Assembly: GCA_034780895.1 (NCBI GenBank)
Contig: JAUZTB010000118.1
Span: 57,704,898 to 57,768,897 of the forward strand
Source: Rhynchobatus australiae
Lineage: Eukaryota
DNA: 64,000 bases
Direction: 5' to 3'
Made by a program: the position numbers and the translations under genes. Below are positions 1-63,892 of the stretch, piece after piece (the first letter of the stretch is position 1; each line of letters starts with the position of its first letter). The notes under the pieces were generated by a model. The model was given only the letters and a program-made list of their open reading frames with translations. It was not told the origin of the DNA and searched no databases.

Positions 1-1278
1 CAATAACCACGGTACACTCAATAATGAATGGATCGATTGACTTGGAATCAAACATTGGTTCTCTTTTTAGACTGTTATGGGGAAGTCAAAACGATCTTGA
101 GTAAGAAAATAAATATTTTAAGAGAATTTTCTTGTGTTACAGATAGATTAATAATCCTTCAATATATATTTTAAACAGCTGTCAATTATGATGACAAGGC
201 AGAATTCTCCTGTTTTGTGAAATGAATAATAGAAAACAGGGCAATCACATCACACCTGTAACAAGCTTCCCTTGCATTTTTGAAACAGCTAAATAATTTA
301 AGTGTGGCCAATAGGAAGCATAATAATGAGTATGGAGTGCAAATATTCACATGTAATGACTCTGGGGAAAGTGAAAATCGTGATTAACTTGCAAAACATA
401 TTCTTCCCCAAGAAGTACATTTCAGTGAGCCTGTCCCCAACTTCTGGACAGCCTTACATACAAATGAGCTCCCATAATATTATTAAATCCAAAATTGTTA
501 TTAATGACAACTAGTTTCATTTCTCTCTCCACTATTATCAATCTTTTCTTTAAATCAGTCTTACCATTACTTACCATTCATTACAAAACTGTGGCAATAT
601 GGCTACCATATCGAATGATTTTTGTCTATTTTCTGATTTATGGACAAAATTGACTTGTAGATGTCTATTAAAAACAGAACCCATTCATTACCCGGGGACC
701 TGTACATGTTTGCTACTAGAAATTTATATTTGCTCATCAAGGCCAATTAGATGTGTCTAATGATCTCAACAAGCACCAAAGGAGAAAGTCAATGCCAGCT
801 TTTAATTTAAACAAGTATCACACAAGGTAACTGTGCTTTCACTTTTTCCCTCTGCTTATGAGAAAGTCAAGAAGTCCTTCGATCTTCAAAGGGTAAATCA
901 GTCACCAAATAATGTGAAAGGGACCTAAAAAAAAAAGTGATATTATCCCTTCAGGTTGTTGCAGAATGCAACAGCTTCAAGGCATTCAATCTATCTTCTG
1001 CTTGAAAACGGCCAATTGTGTGTTTTGGATCTTCAGAGAGGTTAATGAAATCTTTGGCCTTTGTGCCATAGATTTCAGCTGTAGCCATGAGATGGGAACA
1101 AAAGCAGTCAGTCATTGTAAGCATCTCACATATTGGACTCTTGCCAAGTATGGGGTATATGAATGTTTCAGTGAGCCCCGTTGGTGCTATCTTCTCACTG
1201 TGTACAAGGTCAGCTGTGGTGGTCAAGTGCTGCCAAAGGGAGTTAATTTGCATCTGACGCCACTGTTTCCATCCACAG

Positions 1279-3677: not shown

Positions 3678-4699
3678 ATTCCTCCAAGTTCATGTATTTC
3701 TTCCTCTCGTTTTCTCCCTTTTCACTATGGTGACTGCTTCTCTGAGTTCTTCATGATGAGAAAGGCATTACAACAACCCATCACCTGTTCCTGTGGCAAT
3801 TCTTTGGCTGGAGTCTCTCCTGTTCTGCTCTGAAGATATCATTAATAGGACTGCTCCGTCTCAAGGCAGTGATTTGAAAGGATTTGACCTTTGCCGAAGT
3901 CATGGACATAGCTTCTCATATTTTTTTTTAAAAAGATACAAATAGAATTTTAGCATTTTCTTCTCTTCAAGTTCCACAAGTGCCAGAGCAAACCATTACC
4001 GTGTATATTTCAATTTGCCCATCCTTCTATAACTGTGCAGCATTTTTTTCTTTAATTTTTGATGCTTTTTATTTGCATTTGTTTTCAGTGTTAGTTTGTA
4101 ATTGAGGATGTCTAAAGGTCTGGAACCTGAAAGCACAATTACATTATCACACTCCCTCTTAGTAAGTCAGCATGGTAAATGACTGCATGTGATGTAGCTC
4201 AGCCAATGGCAAAGTGTTTGTTGCAGCGGAATGATGATACTAATGCTGACAAGTTTCTAGCCAGCATGTCAGTTTTGCCAGATGCCTGCCTCCTTATCCC
4301 TGAGCCTACTTGCCTGCATACTTTTTACATTTTTTTCTGTTTGAAGCCCCTCTTGAAAATAACCGAATACAGTAACTGGCATTTTTTTGTATAATGGCCT
4401 GTGGTAAATGTGCAATTCAGCATACTCCTGTATTTTATATGAACAGATTAAAGAAAAATGCATTTGACCATGAGCAGGTAACCAGTACAATTGCACCTGT
4501 GATGCAGTAAAATGGTAGTGCTCCATGTGTCAACCTTTTGTTGCATAGCAACAACTGTTTTTAAAAAAAAATGCCTGGATCCTGAATTCACAAACTGGCC
4601 AACAACAGGAGTGTAGTCCTTATCAATTGCTGTACAGTTTTTTAGACTTTTCTCTGCAGCTCTTTGAGTGAATCTCAAATTTTTAAAAGAAATACTTTT
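3678..4699 (+). other. CDC42SE2: Probable non-coding terminal (3' UTR) exon of CDC42SE2; 3' end unresolved because it runs into a gap
   Basis: Strong acceptor atttatttcctacag ending 3677 can pair with the donor at 1401; downstream sequence is repeat-free, U-rich and UTR-like. Confidence 0.6.
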
Positions 4700-8950: not shown

Positions 8951-11809
8951 GGTACAACATTCAGTTATATCAAACTGAGGTTTAAAAAAATGACAATGAA
9001 AGAGATAAAATTGGACAAACCACCCAACCTTGGTCCAGACTCAGACACCCTGCCCAGTCAATTCTGGAAAGATGTCCTCATTTTTAGAGGTGAAATCTAA
9101 TGCCCTTTTTTTTGCAAATTTTGTGGATCAATAAGAAAGAGGACTTCTGTAAATAGAATTAACAAGTTTTATGAAGTGATGGTAAATGATATTACAAATA
9201 CTACTAAGTAATATTTCANNNNNNNNNTAGTCGTGATAAATTCCTTCACTAAATATGTTGCTTGCACTGATGGAAAAGTAACTGCTGCTTTTAAACTGCA
9301 GCCTAAAGCAACTAAATCTTAGTCAGGACTACCAATGAGGGAGCCTACAGGACACCATTTCATTTTGCAATTCTTTCTACAGGGTCTCAGCAAGTTCTAT
9401 GTTTAAAAGTAGCTGTGTTTTGTTTTCTCATGGAAGTATGCTGCTTCTGTGTTAAATTTCAATTCCCTAGATTCTATGAAGGCCCCAGTGGATTGGAAAA
9501 CTGTAAATGTAAACTTCTACTAAAAAAATGCCTTGTGTTAATTCCAATAATTTTCAAACTTGAATTTTCAAAATATGGTGTGACTGCAACTCCTCTGTGC
9601 AGCAATACAACTTGCCACATCCCTCAGTTCTTTCAGAAAAGAAAATATTCCCTTTGTATATGTTTTGTTCTGAAAACTTTGGATTTTTGTTCAGTGGTAG
9701 GAGGTGGATTTTCATGTGCATGGAGCTGCTGAGTGGCCTTACTCATGAGAATACAGTCAAGTCAGAGGAGGAGGAGCCCATATCCTTTATGGAACCCAGC
9801 CAATTTAATATCCATTAATTTAAATGGATGGAAAATTGTTTATACTTTCTTAGACCCAGGTGGTGCCATTTTTCTTTTGTTTGTTGTGACTGAATCATGT
9901 AATATAGCCTACAGAAGCAGGAGCAAAGAAAATTTAACCTTGGAAATTCAGTTAAGTTGGGTTTATAAAACAAAAGGAGATGCAATAAAATGTTACCAAC
10001 ATTCCAAATCAATTGCAAAACATTCATTTACAATCCTCCAATCATTGCTATTAATTTATATCGCTCAAAGTTCCTTATAGATTTCAAACATTGCCAACCA
10101 AGTTCTTGTATTTCTGTATTATGTTGCTAATAGATTTTTTTTGTTCCAGCTACGGTATCTAAGGTTAGTCCCCAACCATTTCATAATCATGCTCCTTTGT
10201 CATTGCGTAAATCTCTGAACCAAGGAAACCTCATCCCAAATATTATGCTTTTAGCACAGGATTTTCATTTAATAGAAGAAGCTGTACAAAATGCTGGGAT
10301 ACATGTTTACTATTCTACCCTCCCCCCTTTTGTTAATCTGCTAGTTGGTTTTCCTGTAACAAAATGTGTAAACAACCAATAATCAAGAGTTTTTTCTCAT
10401 TCTCTTTCTCTCTGTCTTGATTTCTGTGTATCAGAATTTCTTATAAGAACCTGAGATTTCTACATAAGTTTTTCATATCTTCCATGTGGAAGAGATGTAA
10501 TTGTGCACTGTGGAAATTGTTATATGACTTCTGCAATGTTTAAATTTGTTGAATATTTCATTAAGAAGAGCTTCATGGATTTGTGATATTCTCAGATTTC
10601 ATCATCTGCCATCTGTACTGAGAAATGTCACTGGTATTTTTGGGTTGTAGCTGACACTGTTCCTGAGACTTTAAGCAAGACTGGTGTTCATGCATCTCCT
10701 CCGCCTGGCATCTGTTGTATGATGGCAGTAAGATTTTCACTAATGACCAATTTGACCCAGGTTCTGTTTTTGGAGTCTTTTGAAGTGGTTCAGAAAGATC
10801 TGATTGTAAAACGCTGCATTTCACAAAAACATTGGTTGTTTATAAAATTTCAATGTTTTTCTACTAGAAATTGTGTATCAATCATACTAAAATGAGTTGA
10901 TTGTCCTGAATAACTTTTGTAGGAACATCTGTTTAACAGAACATTGATAGTTAACAAACCATTTCCTAAGGCTTGCATTATATGCCCAATCACCTAACTA
11001 TTCTTTTTGTTGTTACTTAAAGATTGATAGTTTCCTCCTCTCCTATTTTCATTTCCCTCCTGTGGATTTTCTTATTGGTTTATATGCAGTCCAAACACAT
11101 CGGGATTTAAAATCAGCAAAGAATGTAATTAGTAGAATAAGATCTTTGCTTGTCTGCCTTAAGTATGCAGTTTTCTTGTTTTCACAATATTTTCCTGTAC
11201 CTGCTTTAAAAAAAAAATGATCTCATTACAACTGCAAATGTACAAAGTGTGGAAAACACTTCCTAATTTACAGAGGGCTACTGTCAATCTTTAAGTCCAA
11301 GAATGATGGTTTTGGGATAGCTGAGTATGTTACCTCCAGCTGAGAGTAGATTGCTGGCACATGAAGAAATTGCTCAAGGAGTTGGCCTGCAGNNNNNNNN
11401 NNTTTGCAAATCACGCTAGGGCTAAATACCTGATCCACACCCTTAATCAGAGTGCCCCTGGGACATCAACCCACTTCAGAGTTGTGTTGAAAAATGCTTT
11501 GGAAAAACTGATCCCACTTTCCATTCATTTATAAATCTGAATGAGAAAAATGTGTTAAACCACAGAGGGCATGTTTGGTCTAATTAAGTGGATGACCTAC
11601 AAAGTAAGGTTTGACGTTTTGGTTTCTGACTGTTTGCTGCAGGAGGACGAGGGAGAATAAGGGGTGGGGGGGGGGGGATAGTGTCAGGTGGGGAAACAAC
11701 AGAGTGCAGNNNNNNNNNNNNNNNNNNNNNNNNNNNNNNNNNNNNNNNNNNNNNNNNNNNNNNNNNNNNNNNNNNNNNNNNNNNNNNNNNNNNNNNNNNN
11801 NNNNNNNNN

Positions 11810-19950: not shown

Positions 19951-20362
19951 TATTTCTCTCATTTTAAAATTGGACACTCTAATTTAGCAAAATAGCTGAA
20001 GTGTCCAGAAAGCTGTACATAAATCATAAGCTCCATTCAAGTGAAAGAGTGAATTTTCTCATGGGCCACTGGGCCATCTGACAGCACACCAGTCATTTTA
20101 AGATGCTGCAAGATGGGATCAGTTCATAGTGCATTATAACAAATAAGGTGCAACTTCCTCCCACTGCCTTGATTTTCATCTGAGCCTCCCTTCTGTGGGA
20201 AGGCTACGGTAAAACTCCATTAAACCAGCATGCTCAGAACTTTGGGCGCTGGACTGGCAGACTTTCCAGACTATTGACCGTTATTCCACCTAATACTCCA
20301 ACACACTTTTCGTTCACTTTTTTTTAATGTTACACAATAGAATAATAATGTTTCCTGCAAAC

Positions 20363-20697
20363 CCAGTTAGTTTAAAGGGAGTGCGGGAAAGAGAACATGG
20401 TGCATTTCAAGGCAGTGCGAAAACTGGTCCAGTGAGTTTAAAGGGATTGTGGGAACCATGGTCCCGGTGAGTTTAAAGGGAGCACAACAAGAACTGGGGC
20501 CTCAGTGAGTTTAAAAGGAATTTAGGAACCCTGGACCCAGTGAGATTAAAGGGAGCTCAGGAACTGGGAGCTAGTGAGCTTAGAGGGACCACAGAAACTG
20601 TTGCCTTGGTGACTTTAAAGGGACTGTGGGAACCAGAGCCCTGGTGAGTTTAAAGGAACCAGGACCCCGGTGCATTAAATGGAGTGTGGGAACGGGG
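20363..20697 (+). repeat. Degenerate ~35-bp minisatellite, about 10 units
   Basis: Recurring core ggtgagtttaaaggga..gggaac..ggnccc; a final partial unit (ggggccccaatgtgttaaa) resumes at ~22775 after the retrotransposon. Confidence 0.85.
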
Positions 20698-20734
20698 GCT
20701 CCTCAGCCTTTTGGCTAAGATCAAGTGTAGTATC
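20698..20734 (+). pseudogene. U2 snRNA 5' fragment (nt 4-40) forming the head of a Tx1 element
   Basis: gctcctcagccttttggctaagatcaagtgtagtatc matches vertebrate U2 nt 4-40 at 35/37 and includes the branch-point-pairing GTAGTA; the rest of U2 is absent. Confidence 0.9.
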
Positions 20735-20902
20735 GACTTGTGGTGGATCTCTACAGACACCGACATTGAAGGAAAGGCATCGATGACTCTTCGTGATCAA
20801 GCAGCTACCTGATGAGAGCTTAACATGCTGACACAGAGGAGGATCCTAATGCTGGTTGGGAAACCAGTTTAACCCCTCTATTCAGCAAGCAACCACACCA
20901 GG

Positions 20903-22283
20903 ATGGCGGCAACAATGAGCACCTCGGGAGGAGGGATCCGCAATACGGTCCGGCTGACGGTGAAGAATCTCAGCGAAGGGAACTCTTTCACGCGGGACCT
21001 CTCCATCAGAAAGGTCTTGCTGGATATTTGCAAGTTCGAGGTGAAGGATATCTACTGCCTCCAGGACTTCACGGGTAACGGATACTTCGACGTTGCCTTC
21101 AAGCTCCCGACGGGATGGCAGGAGCTGCTGCGGGACTTTCGGGAGAAGGGGAACGAAGCTCCGCTGTCACCGCTGAAGGTGCAGCCACTCTTCACCCTCC
21201 CCACCCAGTAGCAACACGTGGTAACGGTGCACATGCTTAACCCACATGTGCCCGTGGTGGATGTCCTCACCTTCCTGGCTCGTTACGTCGAGGGAACAGG
21301 AAGCTGCGTTGACATCTAGGACCTGCTTGGAATCTGGACCAGCAAGCGCCAGGTGAAGGTCAAGCTGAGAGTTGATGCAAATGGATCCATTATCCACCCT
21401 CCCCCCCCCCCCCGTGTTCACCATCAGAGGGAACATGGATACATGGTGTACACGGGACAACCCAGGAAGAGTCACAACTACAACAAACCCGGACACGTGG
21501 CGGCCCAGTGCAGCGCAGTCATCTGCAAGAGCTGCAAGCAAAGGACTGTCGGGAAAGCAAATGTTGCAACCTGTGAGGGGAAGCAGCCACCTCTACAAGG
21601 CCTGCCCCAAAATGGTCCTGTACCTACACACAGCCAATAAGAGGGGGCGTCAGCACCGACAACACCCTGATGAACACCAACACACACCCCACCAGCACAG
21701 TGGCCCCAGAAGAATCGGAGACCAGGAGGGGTGAGGACAGGCCGACCGCCTCGAGCTCCCAACCCCCAGCCACAGACCCCCCAGCCCCCTCCCCAAGAGG
21801 AGGAGTCAATGGAAGAGGGAGTGAGGGAGGGACAAGAAAGGGAATGGCAGGTGGTGAAGAGGAAGGCGGCACAGAAGACACCACCCAAGAGATAAAGGGC
21901 CACAGAAAACAAGGGTACCGGAAAGAAAAGAGTAATGCAGCAGATGGACACCAGCAACCTCTCTTCGTCAGAGGATGAAAACAACAGCGGAAGCCGATGA
22001 CAGAGACAGAGGAAGTGGCAAAATGGAGGAGAGAAAACAGAAGAGAAGCAACAGACAGGAACAAGTGAGGGAAGAACCCTGCCCGCCGACCCCCAGCTCC
22101 AGGAGACCAGGAGCAGCACAGAGGCTGTCACCTCCCAGCACAGCATCCGATGCACCCCAGCACTGGGAGATGAAAGAAACTGGACCACCAGAGGAAAGAA
22201 CAAGGGCACAGATGGATCCCCCACCCCAGCAACACCACCAGCCTCACCACAAGGGGCCCCACACCCGGGGGAGACCACTCCCA
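20903..22283 (+). pseudogene. Disrupted Tx1 ORF1 (ZCCHC3-like RRM + CCHC knuckle gag-like protein)
   Basis: MAATMSTSGGGIRNTVRL...IYCLQDF..GYFDVAF...VTVHMLNPHVP...GIWTSKRQVKVKL...YTGQPRKSHNYNKPGHVAAQC..CKSCK, with in-frame stops (21209, ~21317), a frameshift in a poly-C run and a low-complexity tail. Confidence 0.8.
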
Positions 22284-22383
22284 NNNNNNNNNNNNNNNNN
22301 NNNNNNNNNNNNNNNNNNNNNNNNNNNNNNNNNNNNNNNNNNNNNNNNNNNNNNNNNNNNNNNNNNNNNNNNNNNNNNNNNNN

Positions 22384-22536
22384 GCCCGAAAATTGTTGGT
22401 CTCCCAGCACTGTGAGATGTCCGTAGGGGAATGCTGCCAACTGGCACATTGCAAGCTGCAGGAGGACGTGCTGAGGGACGCACTGAAGTTGAGTGCAATC
22501 AACGCAAGGGCTCGGTGGAGAAGCACGACATTTTAG
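22384..22536 (+). pseudogene. Tx1 ORF2 extreme C-terminus
   Basis: ARKLLVSQHCEMSVGECCQLAHCKLQEDVLRDALKLSAINARARWRSTTF* resembles Tx1-clade ORF2 ends; the rest of ORF2 is absent or hidden in the 100-N gap. Confidence 0.7.
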
Positions 22537-24724
22537 GGTTCTTCTGCCACGGGAGAGGGAAGGGTGGGTCAGGCAAGGAAGCCCCTCAATTATTGTAAAT
22601 ATGGGATTGGAGTATCACCCCAGGGAGCCACACGAGTGGCATCAGTGCTGTGTTTTTTATATATAAACAGTAATATTAAGAATTGATCTGTACACAAATG
22701 TAAAGGTTTGAACTGTTTTATTATATTATATAGTTTCTTTTATTATGAATAAGGTTTATTTTGGTTATAAAAGTGGGGCCCCAATGTGTTAAACACAACA
22801 CTGGAATTAGCACCTGCTGAGCCAAATGCCAAACCATCGGGAATTCTGAAAAATTAGATAGCGGATTATTTAAAGCTTTACTGTACGTGAACCTTGATGG
22901 GATGCTGGCTGTACTAAAGGCTCAATTCAAACTAAACAAATGCAACCTGTTGTTGGATTGCTTCAAGGGTGAATTACGAAGCAGGGGATCCAAACATTGG
23001 CCTGGAAACGCTGGCACGCTCGTGTTGGGACATGGACAGGGCAAATGGTGCAATTCTGGGACTTGAATGTCATGGTTTGATATTTCCCTTATTCATTTCC
23101 ATAGCTGTAAATGAAGTGCCGGCCATGGCTGGCTGGGATTGCAAACAATCAGTGGGTGGTAGAGGTTACTGAGTAACTGGGAAAGGCTCAATGCTGCCTG
23201 TGCGCAAGGGTAGCTGAGGTGGATAATACGATGGTGAGGAGAGACCAATATTTTTGTATCATAGACTTGGGAGGTATATTCGAAACACATAGGGGCCTTT
23301 TGAATGTCCAAGTGCTACTTTGGGGGAGTATATTGAGCAGATGGTGAATGCAGTTGGGCATGATCCACCTGGAAATATGTCCTGTATTCAGTGCACAACT
23401 TTTATTAAATCATATATTCCACTGTTACTGTAATCCAGGTCTGCACATCAACGCTCCTACCTGCACCAATATGGCCATAAATACTCATCCAGCTTGCAAT
23501 AATCTTGCACCTCCTGTCCACCTTGTTGAAAGCTAAGAAGTCCACTTAATTTCTGAAATAGCCTTGTAACTGAATTTCTGGTCATGGGTATTAGCATCCC
23601 CAATAAGTGAAAATATTTTATTCAGCTGGAGCAAAGCCTGTCTATATATCTGTATGTTTAAGTATAGATGCATGGTGAGCTTGCATCACACAATGTGTTA
23701 GCGGCATTGTAAACATCGCACTGTGACCTTTCTCACATGCTGAAGGAAGTTTACAGTTTTGCTGTGTAAGAAAGTTAGGAAATCTTCCAATTTGTTTAGG
23801 AAGGACATATTTCAAAGAATCAGAAACACACAATATTGATACTGTTATACTGAATATTTTAATTTAAAAGATGTTTTTCATTTTAAAAAATTCTTTGATT
23901 AAAGTTTTAATTGTCTTAGAGTTGTTTTGAATGTTTCTGAACACTAGAAAAAGATTCCTTAACAACTGGCTGAGTCAGGGGACATGGGTCAGCCAGCTGC
24001 CAACTTTTGTCAGCAGTTTCATGGGGAGGGACTGTCCTGCCCCCTCTACATCCCACTCCCCACGATGCATGAGCAGAAGCCTTGCAATGGTATGGGGCCT
24101 CGGCAATGGATTTGGAACCAACATGATATCACATTGTGAAAAGTGGTTGCAAGAAAGGTAAGTGGTGAGCAGTGACTGAAGCATTGCTGACTCCAGAGTG
24201 CGGAGCATTTATTCCCTCTGATGAGGAAAATCATGAAGCACTTTTCCACACACAGGGCAATTGAAATGTGCAATATGCCCTTCAAAAGTACATAGATGTA
24301 GTCAAATGAAAGTTTCAAGCCTGAGATTCAGTAAAGGTACTGATTTGATGAGTAAAGGTATCAAGTCAACTCAAGGTACAGATTAGCATTGGTTGACTGA
24401 ATGGCAGACAGGCTTTAGATTTTGAGTGTGATGTTCAAACAAAAGCATTTGCAAACCAAATCGTCATCTTCAGGCCTTGCCACAAACTCTGCACAAATAT
24501 TAATTATTTGATTTCTCAGCATAGACTTTGCCTTAGGTTTGTTACAGCTTCAGTCAACTCCAAAGTTACAGCCTCTCCATCTCAAAGACCGCTCGCTTCA
24601 TCTCTGTAAAAGGTCACTGATTATTTGACAACAAATGTGTACAGTTAATACAAGTCAACAAAATCTAAAACCACAAAACACATTTTCTGCAATCTCCCAG
24701 CATTCTACAATATGTGTTTCTTCT

Positions 24725-42930: not shown

Positions 42931-44534
42931 CAGAAGGAAGCAAGGAAGGCAGCACTGGCAGCCTTTTCACCTGCATACTGATGTGTCTCTCACCCAGCAG
43001 CCTCACGTCCCGTTCCAGGCTCTCTGCAGCACATACAGCACCAAACTGCTGTTCATCAGCTTCCTGTCAGGGAGTCAGGGCCACGTACATATCTGCCAAT
43101 CAGCAATCCCTTGGCGACTCTGCCAAACTGGTAGTGGAGTGCAGCAGTCCCTCCTCTAGCAAATCCTGCACCGCACTGTTCTCATTGGCTTGTGGCAGTC
43201 AGCTGACTGACCCTCACATATATTGAGGACACCAGCACCAAACATACACTCACTCACTAAAGTTGATTATTCAACTTCACGGGCAATGGCTGACACCTGA
43301 CTTCTCCTTACTAGTAAGGAATGTGGAAATAAAAATATATCATTGGGGTTTTGGCAACTAAACAACATTTAACTACATTGGAAAATGGAATCAGAAATTC
43401 ATACTATAGACAAGTGATGAAAGATAATAACAACTACCTCCTTCAAGATTATAACATGTATCAAAGATATATTTCTATATACAGTGCTACAGATTTTAAA
43501 TCCCTGCATGACATAAATGCACAGTTAATCCTAGAAACAAGATCATGGCCAACTCAGTGACAGAAAGTGAACACATTCTTTTGGCCAATAAATTTCATCA
43601 ACGGTATTAAGCAGTGAGGTGGACTTTGTGAACCTCGTGGGAGAGGGTATTACTTTGGGGTATGCTGGTGTTGGTAATGGAGTGGCCCCGGACACAGGTT
43701 GGTACCCATTCTGTGAACATCAAAAAAAAACTGTCGATGCTGGGAATCTAAAACAAAAATAGAAAATGCTGCATCCGTGGGAAGAGAAACAGAGTTCGTG
43801 TTTCAGGTCAGAGAGCCTTTGTCAGAACTCCGACCTGAAACGTTAACTCTTTCTCTTCCCGCAGATGCGGTCTGACCTGCTGAGTATTTCCAGCATTTTC
43901 TTGTTTTGTTTTAGAATTCCTGCATTTGCATTTTTTTTTAAATTTTCACCTGTTGCATTCACTGCTGCTTCTCTTTCAGGATTGCCTAGCATGAAGTTCC
44001 ATTCAGCTCTGTGATGAGATTTCCTTCTGTCTCTCTGGACGTACAATCTCTGACCTGAAACGTTGACTATTTCCACAGGTGCTACCTGACCTGCTGAGTA
44101 CTGCCGGCATTTTCTGTTTTTGCCTTAGGTACCCATCCGGTCCTGAGTCATTCAGTTTTTGTGGCTCGCTGGCTCCACACATCAGTAATCAGTCTAAAAT
44201 TAAGTCTTTGTGGCCCCCTTTTGGTTGAATAAGCAAGTAGTCTTGTCTTAGGTTTCACAAGCTCTTTTGCATCCATCACAACTTCCTAAATAAACAAGAC
44301 ATCTGTCAGACTGCAGCTACTACTGTGATGCCCTGCCCCCAAGTCCAAGACTGGTCCAGAGATGCTGTTCCTTCCCAGACTCACTCGGTCAGAGGCCTCC
44401 TGACTCTGACCCAGCATCACCCGCCCAACCATCATCCCCGACAATCTGGGCAACACCCCACCCTGATCATCTGCCCAACCAATTACCCTGATTCCCTCTC
44501 GGATTCCCCCTGCCCCTCAGTACTCCTCTTATTA

Positions 44535-45145
44535 TGGGACATTATACTGCAGTTGTATCAGTCACTGGCGTGGCCACACTTGGAGTACTGTAGACCGTTT
44601 TGGACACCCTGTTATAGGAAAGACGTGGTTAAACTGGAAAGAGTGCAGAGAAGATTTATAAGGATGTTGCCAGGACTAGAGGGCCTGAGTTATAGGGAGA
44701 GGTTGCACAGGCTGGGCCTTTATTCCTTGGAACATAGGAACATCAAGGGTGACCTTATAGAAGTGTTTAAAATTATGAGAGGCGTAGATAAGGTGTATGG
44801 TAACAGTTTTTTCCCCAAGGTAGGGGAGTCCAGAACTAAGGGGCATGGGTTTAGGGTGAGAGGGGAAAGATTTGAAAGGGACCTGAGGGGCAACTTTTTC
44901 CTGCAGAGGGTGGTGAGTATGTGGAACGAGCTGCCTGTGGAAATGGTTGAGGCAGGTACAATAATATCAAGAAGCATTAGGTACTTGGTACTCGGTACAA
45001 TAGGTATTTGGATAGGGCAGGGCTTCGCAGGATATAGACCAAACGAAGGAAATTTGGACTAGCTGGGTGGGCACCGTGGCCGGCACGGACTGGTTGAACC
45101 GAGGGGCCTGTATCCATGCTATGCTGTTCTATGACTCTATGACTC
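44535..45145 (+). mobile_element. CR1 LINE 3' end (RT C-terminus and 3' UTR)
   Basis: LYQSLAWPHLEYC..W.P.YRKDVVKLERVQRRFIRMLPGLEGLSYRERL..LGLYSLEHR..KGDLIEVFKIMRG...FFLQRVVSMWNELP; ends in ctatgactctatgact. Confidence 0.95.
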
Positions 45146-47215: not shown

Positions 47216-48379
47216 AAGCAGTTCTGATGAAAGATCATCAACCTGAATCATTGATTCTGTTTCTCTCTACACAGATGCTGCCTGCCCTGCTGAGCATTTC
47301 CAGAATTTTGTTGTTATTTTAGATTTCTAGCTTCACAGTATTTGGGTTGATATTCAGCCCTCCACATCTGTTTACTAGTTTTGAAAGTCAGAAAGTTCCT
47401 TGGAGTTGTNNNNNNNNNNNNNNNNNNNNNNNNNNNNNNNNNNNNNNNNNNNNNNNNNNNNNNNNNNNNNNNNNNNNNNNNNNNNNNNNNNNNNNNNNNN
47501 NNNNNNNNNNNNNNNNNNNNNNNAGAACCTATTTGCAACAGATGATCCGAAGGTGACTTGGACACGTCTCTGTGATTTTGGTAGAGGAGTTCTTTCATGT
47601 CACAACCCCCATAGTTTGGGGGTTATTAGTTCTTTGACAGATGTCCATTGTTCATCATAATTAATAGAGGTTTTCTTTTTTTTGATATAGCTGATACATT
47701 TACATTTAATAAAAAGATGTCTCAAAGAGTTCATTTGCCATTTCATTGTTAATGCCAAATTATAAATCATCTGTTGCCAACCATGAACAATTCTCATGCC
47801 TGCTATGCAACAGCACCACTGAGTGGCCATGGGAAAAAGTGAAACTGGAGTATTCACAGCTGATTCCGAAGTCAGCAAATGTTTTGCAGCAAATGAACAA
47901 TAGGTCAAGAATTTCCACACATATGGCCCAGCTCCACCACTGTAACTTTGCTGGTTGTGTAGTGAGCCACATTTACATGTGGGATGGCAGTTTCTCTGCA
48001 CTTCCAGATCAGTGAAAATATGATGGAGAAACAGGAGCAGCTGGGATGAAAGTCCAATAGACTTTCTTATTTTCTATTCAACTTTCTGGTTAACTGTTTT
48101 ATGCAAAGATATCCAGCAGTAAATTATCATCTGTACAAAAACTACAACTTTTCTTTGCAGTACTATATTACTAATACCATAGTAAAATACTACCAACCCA
48201 CAGAAGGATGCAATAGAAAGTGGGTGAGTGTTAAGGAAAGTTCTGATTGAGGAAGAAGTAGCTAGANNNNNNNNNNNNNNNNNNNNNNNNNNNNNNNNNN
48301 NNNNNNNNNNNNNNNNNNNNNNNNNNNNNNNNNNNNNNNNNNNNNNNNNNNNNNNNNNNNNNNNNNGAAGAAGTAGCTA

Positions 48380-54962: not shown

Positions 54963-56489
54963 ATTACTCATTGAAGTTTAGAAGAACAAGAGGCGATCTT
55001 ATTAAAACATAAGATTCTAAGGGGTAAATGCTGAGAGGATGCTTTGTCTCATGGGAGATTCTAGAACCAGAGGACCTTTTCTGAGAATAAGGGAATGCCT
55101 TTTAAGACAGATGAGGAGGATTTCTTCTCTATGAGGATGACGAGTCCTTGTACTCACAGCTCCCTGTGAAAAGGAGCTTCAAAGTCCTTGGATATATTTA
55201 AGGCTGAAATAGATACATTTCTAATCAGTAAAGGAATCAANNNNNNNNNNNNNNNNNNNNNNNNNNNNNNNNNNNNNNNNNNNNNNNNNNNNNNNNNNNN
55301 NNNNNNNNNNNNNNNNNNNNNNNNNNNNNNNNNNNNNNNNCTCCGCCTGTAACTGGAGGGGAGGAACATGATAATTATATCCATTGTAACATGCAGTCTG
55401 AATGAACTCCATAACTTTCCATGTCTCTCTCACATTCTCTCATCACCATAGCAACATGTCCAACAAAAGCCACAACCAGATGTTATCCCACACTCTTCCC
55501 ACTCACAGCTCAAGTTCCCACTCCCAGCATCGAGAATCCTGCTTGGAATCTACAATGATTCAGAGGGAGATGGAGAAGAATTGGTTTCCCACTATCTCCT
55601 CCATCTGGAAATTCCAAAGTTGTCTTCTGCAGACAACCCCTGAATACATGGGAACAAAAAATGGGAAGAAGGGTATTCCTGGCTTCCCCACTGGACTGTC
55701 TCATTATCCTTTGCACATTCACCACTCATTAGCAACAAAAGGAAAGGAAATCTCCAGAGAGCCAACTGATTGGAAAGAAATGTAATTCCTGCTACCCTGC
55801 TTTCTGAAGTCCTGCCGTGATTACACACATTTCCGTTCAGCCAAAGCTCCTGTCTGAATCTGACCCGGAGTTCCTGCCAATATTTCACCCAGTGGGATCT
55901 CCCCATTCTCATCCATGGTCAAACCAACCAATCAGGAGACTGAGGTGAAAATCTGGACTCCTTAAGACTGCTCCATTGCTTAAAAAGATCAAGCTTGATC
56001 TAACTGTAGCCACGTCCCCATCTGTCCCCGTTACCTTTCACCCCTTTGCTTATCAAGTATCCTTCTAGTTCTGTCTTAACATTACTCTGCTTCCAGGGAC
56101 CTCCAAAGCCCCACGACCTTCTGAGAGAAAAATATTATCCTCAATTCTGTTTTAAATGCACAACCTCTAATGTGTAAACAGTGACCCCTGGTTCTCGATT
56201 CTCCCACCAGAGGAAACGTCCACTCCGTATTCATCCCTGTCGAGACTCCTCAGGGTCCCCTCTCATTCTTCTCAGATCCAGCAGCTGCACACCTATTCTG
56301 CCCAACCTTCCTGCATCCGACAATCCAGCTGTTCCAGATGGGAATTAAGTAAACCTTTCTTGAACTGTTCCAATGGAACTATCCTTCCTTAAACACAGAG
56401 GCCAATACGGCACATTGATGTGATCTCACTGGTGCCCTATAGAACTGAAGCATTTGTACTATGTACTAAAATGTTTTGTATTAAATTCC

Positions 56490-57186
56490 CTAGTTATAAG
56501 GAGATACTGGATAGGATAAGACTGTTTTCCCTGGAACATAGAAGGCTGAGGGGTGTCCTTATAGAGGTTACTCAAATCACGAGGGGCATAGATAAGGTAA
56601 GTGGTCACACTCATTTTTTCCAGTGTAGCTATACAGGTCCCTGGTCAGACCCCACTTGGAGTACTGTGCTCAGTTCTGGTCGTCTCACTACAGGAAGGAT
56701 GTGGAAGCCATAGAAAGGGTGCAGAGGAGATTTACAAGGATGTTGTCTGGATTGGGGAGCATGCCTTATGAAAACAGGTTGAATGAACTCAGCCTTTTCT
56801 CCTTGGAGCAACAGAGGATGAGAGGTGACCTGATCGAGGTGTATAAGATGATAAGAGGCATTGATCGTGTGGATAGTCAGAGGCTTTTTCCCAGGGCTGA
56901 AATGTTGCCACAAGAGGACACAAGTTTAAGCTGCTGTGGAGGAGGTACAGAGGAGATGTCAGGGGCAAGTTTTTTACTCAGAGAGTGGTGAGTGCGTGGA
57001 ATGGGCTTCCGGCAATGGTGGTGGAGGCGGATACGACAGGGTCTTTTAAGAGACTTTTGGATAGTTACATGGAGCTTAGAAAAATAGAGGGCTTTGGGTA
57101 AGCCTACTAATTTCTAAGGTAGGGATGTGTTCGACACAACTTAGTGGGCCGAAGGGCCTGTATTGTGCTGTAGGTTTTCTATGTTT
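56490..57186 (+). mobile_element. Two juxtaposed CR1 3' fragments (junction ~56630)
   Basis: SYKEILDRIRLFSLEHRRLRGVLIEV, then a restart at LVRPHLEYCAQFWSSHYRKDVEAIERVQRRFTRML; tail gggccgaagggcctgtattgtgctgta. Confidence 0.92.
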
Positions 57187-57885
57187 CTTACTAAGACTGG
57201 TTGCTGCAAATTCCATTGCTGCTATGGTGGGATTTGAACTCTGTGATAACTCAGCCACTATCATTGCCTTCACTGAATATCAGCACAATTAGCACATATC
57301 CAGTGGTAGGGCTCGGTGGAATTTAAGGACTCCATTGTTCTTCTGGGAGGGAGAAAAGTGGATGAGAGTAGATGTATGGAAAATCAAACAGACACAGTTG
57401 AGATCCCTTAAGGATTGAAATCTGTAACAGAAGTTAAATGGGAGAAATACAGGAAGGTCTGTTGTGCAATAGATCAATCAAGACATGTGATGAATACAAG
57501 GAACAGGCACAAAAAATTAAAGTTCCCAGCTTTTGGAGAGGCACATACATACATCAATAACATTATGGATATGGGGTGAATGTATGTCGATGTGCCTATA
57601 ACCTCATATTACACAATTTTATTTTATTGATTATCGAGGTACCAATATCTCTGTTTCCTCCACCTACCTGTCATCCACCACCATAAGCCCCAATCCCCTC
57701 CAAATAATATACTAACACACACTCAGCTCCAAAGGATCCAGAAAAACTGGGAGGGTGGAATTGAGTTCAGCAAGATGATAAACTTTCAGGGCAGGCAATT
57801 TTAATAAAAAGAAGTGGAGCCTGGAGTAGTAATAGACTTGTTAAGCTATTTATTATGTAAAGAAAGTGGTAAAATTAGGTAAGTG

Positions 57886-58019
57886 NNNNNNNNNNNNNNN
57901 NNNNNNNNNNNNNNNNNNNNNNNNNNNNNNNNNNNNNNNNNNNNNNNNNNNNNNNNNNNNNNNNNNNNNNNNNNNNNNNNNNNNNNNNNNNNNNNNNNNN
58001 NNNNNNNNNNNNNNNNNNN
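57886..58019 (-). ncRNA. Inferred small Pol III RNA gene hidden in an assembly gap (about U6-sized; identity not visible)
   Basis: Inferred only from the upstream promoter geometry and the 134-N gap length; no RNA sequence is readable. Confidence 0.5.
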
Positions 58020-58028
58020 ATCGAGAGC

Positions 58029-58236
58029 TATATAAAACACCGGATTCTGCACCACTCTATGGTTGTGGTGACTTATAATTTAACCATCTTTCTGCTATGC
58101 ACTCCCTGCTCCTTAACTTAATATTCAACAAGTCTATAGCTCGCTTGATCCTCCTCATGACTTTCAATTTTAATCTTTATGAAATAATTTAATGAAAACT
58201 ATTGCAACTATTTGTGGGAGCCGGGCGTATGCAAAT
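58029..58236 (-). promoter_or_regulatory. Type-3 (U6/7SK-like) RNA polymerase III promoter: OCT + SPH, PSE, TATA
   Basis: Minus strand: ATTTGCAT (58236-58229), SPH/ZNF143-like CTCCCACAAATAGTTGCA (58220-58203), PSE-like GTCACCACAACCATAGAGT (58072-58054), TTTTATATA (58037-58029). Spacing matches the U6 promoter for a TSS near 58005. Confidence 0.72.
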
Positions 58237-58705
58237 AAAGAGCACAGCTGCTGGCCAATCGGAATCCGAATCTTCTGAATAATATTTAAAAAGTTGTAAA
58301 TCATGGGTATTGGCACTCCCTGTCTCTGAAAACCTGTGTTCAACGTTAGCAGTATCGAAAATTTAACATTTTGATGAGGACTTAAAGTGGGAATAATTTG
58401 AAAATTTAAAATAGCTGTGACTAGTCAAAGGAGGCAGCAATCCCAAATCAAGACAATTGATTTGCTGGGTCAATACTCCCTTGTGAACATGTGGAAAACT
58501 TTTGTATTGCAGATAAAATCTCAAAATGGCAGGAGCACTCCCGCGTTCGTCGGTGCTCGGTGCCTGCAATCCCTGGGTGACCTCAATTGGCAACAGATCT
58601 AGTGACTGTATCAAAAATGCCGGTAGCTTCTGTCACAAGGACTAAATACGCATGAGTGCAACTCGATGCCATCTTTGATGCTGGCAATTGTCATCACACA
58701 GCAAG

Positions 58706-58759
58706 ATGGCGACAGGACAACAGTGGGTGTTGGTAGAAATGGTCCAGGCCTTTTATGAG
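58706..58759 (+). CDS. SPTLC1: Serine palmitoyltransferase long chain base subunit 1, coding exon 1
   Basis: MATGQQWVLVEMVQAFYE|gtaaga; human begins MATATEQWVLVEMVQALYE. Kozak/YY1-like caagATGGCG context. Confidence 0.95.
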
Positions 58760-58904
58760 GTAAGATGAAACGAGTCACAGAAAATAACTCCAGTTCGGGA
58801 AACAGCGCTTAATTAACTGAAGTCAGGTTGTTGATGACAGTAATTATAGTCCCATTGGGAAGTTACCTGGTCGAGCTCTACATTATTGAGTCCCATTGCT
58901 AGGA

Positions 58905-59030
58905 GGAAGTTCCGGAAGTGGGCTCGGTTGATTTCAGAACTAACCAATTACACCGCAGCTTTTCCCTGACGTCACCCTGAATAGCGTGATTGTTGGCTCA
59001 GCAGGCCAATTGGAAAAGAGCGGGGGCGGT
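58905..59030 (+). promoter_or_regulatory. CpG-rich cluster of Pol II promoter motifs in SPTLC1 intron 1
   Basis: ETS/GABP CCGGAAGTG (58912-58920), CCAAT (58944), CRE TGACGTCA (58967-58974), CCAATTGG (59006-59013), GC box GGGGCGG (59023-59029). Confidence 0.7.
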
Positions 59031-59259
59031 GCTGGTACCGGTCCGTGATGTGGTAATCCAGGGCAGTCATCTAGTGTTTGTGGGTGGACACGGACACTTG
59101 GGGCTGGAGTGGAAACGGTGATACAAGTATTCCATGCATGTGGTCCTTTCATCATTAGGTTTGATTACTTGAACGTTTTGGAAATATGGTTTGGAGGAGC
59201 TCCGGTATACACGAAGATCTGGGTGGAGTGTAGAACCAAGGTGAAGCAGTAAGGCACCT

Positions 59260-63574: not shown

Positions 63575-63700
<126 letters not shown>

Positions 63701-63766: not shown

Positions 63767-63892
<126 letters not shown>

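Follow-up and report, generated by a model that had tools for sequence, protein, structure and literature searches.

Type-3 Pol III promoters form a short list in human, where 14 are described in PMC3499247, and at promoters containing a PSE it is the TATA box that directs the choice of Pol III instead of Pol II (PMC3499247; PMC5855946). According to PMC10498592, Y RNA ranges from 84 to 112 nt, U6atac is about 120 nt and vault RNA ranges from 88 to 100 nt; U6 is about 100 nt, and 7SK, RNase P RNA and RNase MRP RNA range from 270 to 341 nt (PMC10498592; PMC12193147). U6 comes from multiple genes, at least four of which are active in human (PMC5855946), and 7SK, RPPH1 and each of the Y RNAs are single genes in human (PMC10498592), which gives U6 the higher prior as the product of a type-3 promoter. 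Chicken and mammalian 7SK are located between GSTA3 and ICK (PMC2235858). RPPH1 and Parp2 are transcribed divergently from the H1 promoter, and in mouse this unit has 177 bp (PMC13206784).

The 64-kb window, which is the whole stretch of DNA analysed, shows a set of elements of this promoter class on the - strand (Table 1). The first-pass annotation had given an octamer, a PSE-like element and, 16 nt later, a TATA box on this strand: all of them are found in the sequence at the positions first given, and coordinate arithmetic reproduces its placement of the octamer and the PSE and its TSS near 58005. The predicted TSS, 58005, is obtained by anchoring TTTATATA at -31, with a precision of about 2 nt, and since it is itself anchored on the TATA box, the meaningful test is the spacing between the TATA box and the PSE. 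The PSE-like 18-mer scores 12/18 against the mouse U6 PSE and 10/18 against the human U6 PSE, the references being the mouse and human U6 18-mers listed in Table S3 of PMC11541246. An SPH-like site adjoining the octamer had also been claimed; it is placed correctly, and its best 17-mer agrees at 13/17 positions with the consensus read off Fig. S10 of PMC3499247, but it is weak when taken alone, with 233 sites in the window that are equal or better. The octamer and the SPH-like site are unchanged in two contigs of close relatives, which is uninformative at such low divergence: with 22 differences in 835 nt in one of these contigs, the expected chance of no change in a 25-nt stretch is 0.51. The inverted CCAAT box, which immediately precedes the octamer, may belong to the distal element; CCAAT-type words are common, with 187 occurrences in the window, and tilapia and human U6 promoters are reported to contain motifs of this type (PMC11541246). 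A Pol II snRNA gene of the U1/U2 type, with a TATA-less PSE promoter, was considered and rejected, since a TATA box is present at the Pol III spacing.

Table 1. Coordinates of the promoter elements, the gap and the neighbouring features, numbered from the first letter of the window; negative positions are relative to the predicted TSS.
Feature	Position	Strand	Remarks
Inverted CCAAT box	58260-58255	-	-255 to -250, just upstream of the octamer
Octamer ATTTGCAT, exact	58236-58229	-	Predicted POU2F1/Oct-1 site; -231 to -224
SPH/ZNF143-like 17-mer CTCCCACAAATAGTTGC	58220-58204	-	-215 to -199, 3' of the octamer; weak
PSE-like element GTCACCACAACCATAGAGT	58072-58054	-	Predicted SNAPc site; starts at -67
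TATA box TTTTATATA	58037-58029	-	16 nt past the PSE-like element; TTTATATA at -31 to -24
N run	57886-58019		134 N; contains the predicted TSS, 58005; putative site of a small RNA gene (- strand)
First visible T4 past the gap	57874-57871	-	Would bound the transcript at 135 nt, given an exact gap length and the absence of a terminator within the gap
CpG-enriched region	58001-59200		Spans the putative type-3 promoter and the SPTLC1 start
SPTLC1 coding exon 1 (MATGQQWVLVEMVQAFYE)	58706-58760	+	Points away from the promoter; a YY1-like word overlaps its ATG

The distance from the PSE start to TTTATAT is 35 nt in human U6 and 36 nt here, and the distance from the octamer to the PSE is 155 nt in human U6, 162 nt in mouse U6 and 164 nt here (PMC11541246). 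The octamers of human U6 genes are located between -214 and -241, those of U6-1, U6-7, U6-8 and U6-9 between -214 and -224, in the same orientation as here (Fig. S9 of PMC3499247). In human U6-1, U6-7 and U6-8 the SPH site is upstream of the octamer (PMC3499247), whereas here it is downstream, and salmon U6 shows the same order as here, octamer and then SPH (PMC11541246). A likeness seen by eye between the PSE-like element and a word in the salmon U6 upstream regions presented there was dropped, because its TATA spacing is off by about 4 nt. Chicken 7SK shows the PSE at -67, the TATA box at -31 (36 nt) and the octamer followed by the SPH site, all as here, with the difference that the octamer here is 9 nt further upstream (PMC2235858). 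Judged by its predicted elements and their spacing, the layout is that of a textbook type-3 promoter. This layout cannot tell one type-3 gene from another, as chicken 7SK has equal PSE and TATA positions and the same order of octamer and SPH site.

The window contains 60 sites that match the PSE at 12/18 or better, and only one of them is followed by a TATA word at the expected spacing; this one also has the octamer. The composite, defined as a PSE of at least 12/18 (mouse or human U6) with a TATA word and an exact octamer 120-200 nt upstream, is therefore found once in the window and appears in one of 400 block-wise dinucleotide shuffles; the PSE and TATA box taken without the octamer appear in 123 of the 400, which is not significant. 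Because the 12/18 cut-off was chosen with the score of the site already known, the test was repeated at six settings (three PSE cut-offs by two octamer definitions), using 250 Markov resamplings. At all six the site is the only composite match in the window, and the chance expectation per window ranges from 0.008 (strict) to 0.52 (loosest), so that the composite is significant on the strict reading and not on the loosest. Among 120,784 possible PSE positions, only 576 (0.48%) place the TSS within a run of at least 80 N, which argues that the promoter and the gap are probably linked.

The N run is one of 17 gaps in the window, eight of which have exactly 100 N. The predicted TSS leaves 14 N before it and 120 N after it to the end of the gap. 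A transcript of 106-107 nt would fall in the middle of the gap, flanked by 14 N on its 5' side and by 14 or 13 N on its 3' side, and RNAs of 87, 100 or 125 nt would be off-centre; this depends on an exact gap length and on a TSS placed with a precision of about 2 nt. U6 has 106-107 nt and tRNA-Sec has 87 nt. With the gap length as given, the sizes that fit the limit of 120-135 nt are those of U6, Y RNA, tRNA-Sec and U6atac, and the room of at most about 120 nt first estimated, suited to U6 or to an RNA the size of Y RNA or tRNA-Sec, agrees with the 120 N after the TSS if that length is right. On the same proviso the sizes of 7SK, RNase MRP RNA and RNase P RNA are not reached within the 120 N, and no Rfam remnant is found beyond them. 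The first-pass annotation also had a multicopy RNA explain why the assembly broke here, and this claim is weakened: the known sequence stops 14 nt before the TSS and not within the RNA, so the collapse of a multicopy sequence would be neither the sole nor the most natural cause. Where known sequence breaks off before the putative RNA on either side, the usual behaviour of assemblers would suggest trimming or blanking rather than a contig entering a collapsed repeat.

Rfam at the gathering threshold gives no matches in the whole window; taken by E-value, it gives four matches in 57300-59100 and three in 57500-57885, all of them far below gathering and none to a Pol III RNA. ARAGORN finds no tRNA in the window, and the promoter pattern has no matches in metagenome contigs. 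Contigs of four public runs align to the window in 19 pieces, none of them within 57771-58095, the segment that contains the PSE, the TATA box and the gap. One of these runs contains all of the sampled words of the window (1.00) and contributes only five short pieces, each under 90%, so the blank at 57771-58095 is counted neither for nor against the gene. Elsewhere in the window, the gaps at 48267-48366 and 11710-11809 have 100 N each and show duplicated flanks (a 15-nt overlap and a repeated 24-nt word), which is typical of scaffold joins of nominal size, and most of the other gaps are ordinary breaks, several of them at simple repeats. Just left of the 134-N gap, at 57878-57885, the + strand shows a splice-donor-like word, GGTAAGTG, for which a crude exon scan found no matching upstream exon.

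The gene on the other side of the promoter is SPTLC1. Its ATG, at 58706, lies 701 bp from the predicted TSS, in agreement with the approximately 700 bp first claimed, and its identity is confirmed: exon 2 (63575-63682) and exon 3 (63770-63864) match residues 20-55 and 56-86 of solved serine palmitoyltransferase 1 chains, with E-values of 3.9e-17 and 6.5e-13, respectively. SPTLC1 shows Pol II-type words at 58703-59030: a YY1-like word at 58703, and ETS, CRE, CCAAT and GC boxes at 58854-59030. Within its intron 1 these words form a cluster, with ETS at 58912, CRE at 58967, CCAAT at 58854, 58944 and 59006 and a GC box at 59023, and no other exact ETS or CRE word occurs in the window; the cluster could be a downstream enhancer or an antisense or alternative promoter. 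Of 602 one-kb segments, the three with the highest CpG observed/expected ratio (0.62-0.63) are those that make up 58001-59200, and the ratio of the window as a whole is 0.22. This richness at the promoter is as expected for an unmethylated, maintained promoter, and SPTLC1 alone could explain it. A second CpG-rich stretch, at 20101-22600, contains broken open frames which resemble the first ORF of a Tx1/L1-type retrotransposon.

For the left-hand neighbour, the crude exon scan gives 13 rows; SPTLC1 exon 3 is the one row that can be recognised, and exon 2 is missed. Pfam, run on the 146 of 421 stop-free frames of at least 52 aa that are located in 37037-57801, gives one weak match below the cut-off. 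Two fragments, at 44241-45059 and 56393-57190, have no Pfam match and resemble the 3' end of CR1-type LINEs.

The layout is divergent from SPTLC1, as the claim of a divergent Pol III/Pol II pair had it, but pairs of this kind are already known and the pairing is absent at the one other SPTLC1 locus found. At RPPH1 and PARP2, too, a Pol III promoter of type 3 and a Pol II protein gene point away from each other, in one compact shared unit (177 bp in mouse), whereas the 701 bp from TSS to ATG here are four times larger (PMC13206784). Neither a Pol III gene beside SPTLC1 nor a shark or ray U6 promoter was found in the literature, mostly non-subscription, that was searched. A search with the SPTLC1 exon-1 pattern gives one locus (L001) in metagenome contigs, none in genome contigs and none in viral contigs. 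A UnaL2-like word, with an E-value of 0.0087 and a score below gathering, is the reason for calling this locus fish-like; apart from SPTLC1 exon 1, the locus shows no credible similarity to the window. Neither an Rfam RNA nor an exact octamer nor a PSE and TATA pair is present in the approximately 2.96 kb upstream of its SPTLC1 ATG, and the absence of such a promoter at this one distant locus counts against an ancient conserved pair. L001 also shows a UnaL2 LINE 3'-element-like match at 681-735 (+), in SPTLC1 intron 1 (30 bits against a gathering threshold of 55), and an open frame at 3915-4103 (+) that ends near a GT donor-like word. This frame is divergent from SPTLC1, about 2.7 kb upstream of it, is possibly an exon of a neighbouring gene and has no credible match in the window.

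A real type-3 Pol III gene very probably follows the promoter. The layout at 58029-58260 (-) would drive an ordinary small Pol III RNA, and on balance we favour U6 snRNA, predicted to lie within the gap. The U6-type promoter firing into the gap that was first claimed thus keeps its type-3 layout and, if the gap length is right, enough space for a transcript of about 120 nt, and its weak point is the SPH site. By analogy with the known promoter class, Oct-1 and ZNF143 would bind the distal element and SNAPc would bind the PSE, TBP/BRF2/BDP1 would bind the TATA box and recruit Pol III, and Pol III would start near 58005 and terminate at a run of T within the gap. The open CpG-rich region would be common to the gene and the divergent SPTLC1 promoter, and the two need not have elements in common. 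U6 is our best guess among the type-3 RNAs because it is multigenic and because an RNA of 106-107 nt is centred in the gap; against it, no base of the RNA is seen, the SPH site is weak and L001 has neither promoter nor RNA.

The same promoter could precede another known short type-3 transcript, namely a Y RNA, a tRNA-Sec with a trailer, U6atac or a vault-type RNA with upstream elements. The sizes of Y RNA, U6atac and vault RNA are within the limit of 120-135 nt (PMC10498592), and human Y RNA and tRNA-Sec promoters have octamer and ZNF143 sites at -200 to -260 (PMC3499247), but such RNAs would be off-centre in the gap and Rfam shows no 3' remnant past it. Within this set, the human U6atac octamer is poor and near -125 (PMC3499247), and the Y RNA genes, being single-copy in human, have a lower prior (PMC10498592). 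A short RNA other than U6 appears rather unlikely, if well within reach. If the gap length is underestimated, it may hide a longer type-3 RNA, 7SK, RNase MRP RNA or RNase P RNA. Scaffold gap sizes can be estimates, as the eight gaps of exactly 100 N illustrate, the geometry equals that of chicken 7SK (PMC2235858), and RPPH1 offers a known case of divergence from a Pol II gene (PMC13206784). However, 7SK, of about 330-340 nt, is too long for the gap as given (PMC2235858), a longer RNA needs 150-220 nt beyond the gap, where no 3' part is visible, and the neighbours described are GSTA3 and ICK for 7SK (PMC2235858) and PARP2 for RPPH1 (PMC13206784), not SPTLC1, which makes a longer RNA very unlikely.

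The possibility that the promoter is an orphan, decayed or a chance assembly of words, and that the gap contains an unrelated repeat or unique DNA, draws on the weak SPH site, the PSE score of 12/18, the frequency of the PSE and TATA pair in the shuffles, the 0.52 composites expected at the loosest thresholds, with none at L001, and the ordinary nature of most other gaps in the window. Set against these are the rarity of the strict composite, the low base rate at which a TSS falls in a gap, and the intact exact octamer and canonical spacing, and we consider this explanation improbable. Finally, the hidden transcript may be a Pol III RNA that is specific to the lineage and not yet described, and SPTLC1 may share a truly bidirectional promoter with it: the CpG-rich region is common to both, and nothing relevant on SPTLC1 together with Pol III or snRNA was found in the literature searched. 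In its fullest form, an RNA of at most about 135 nt would be specific to the lineage and its octamer/ZNF143 distal element would also drive SPTLC1. The known type-3 genes, few as they are with the 14 human promoters of PMC3499247, are much more likely to be what the gap contains, Pol II-type motifs of SPTLC1 itself are present at 58703-59030, and the distance to the ATG is much looser than the mouse H1 unit (PMC13206784); both the undescribed RNA and the shared distal element are accordingly rated as highly improbable.

A U6 gene here changes no concept: type-3 promoters are established, and so are multiple U6 loci and divergent Pol III/Pol II pairs. The locus would be surprising only if the gap contained an RNA of a new kind or if control were shared with SPTLC1. 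In that case, if true, an undescribed RNA with a shared element would link sphingolipid synthesis, at its first step, to a small RNA. With U6 in the gap, as we favour, the locus is a probable functional small-RNA gene that is invisible to sequence-based annotation of this assembly. Promoter strength varies between fish cell lines, and native promoters are sought for this reason (PMC11541246); the promoter described here is a candidate native U6-type driver for the expression of guide RNA or shRNA in this lineage.
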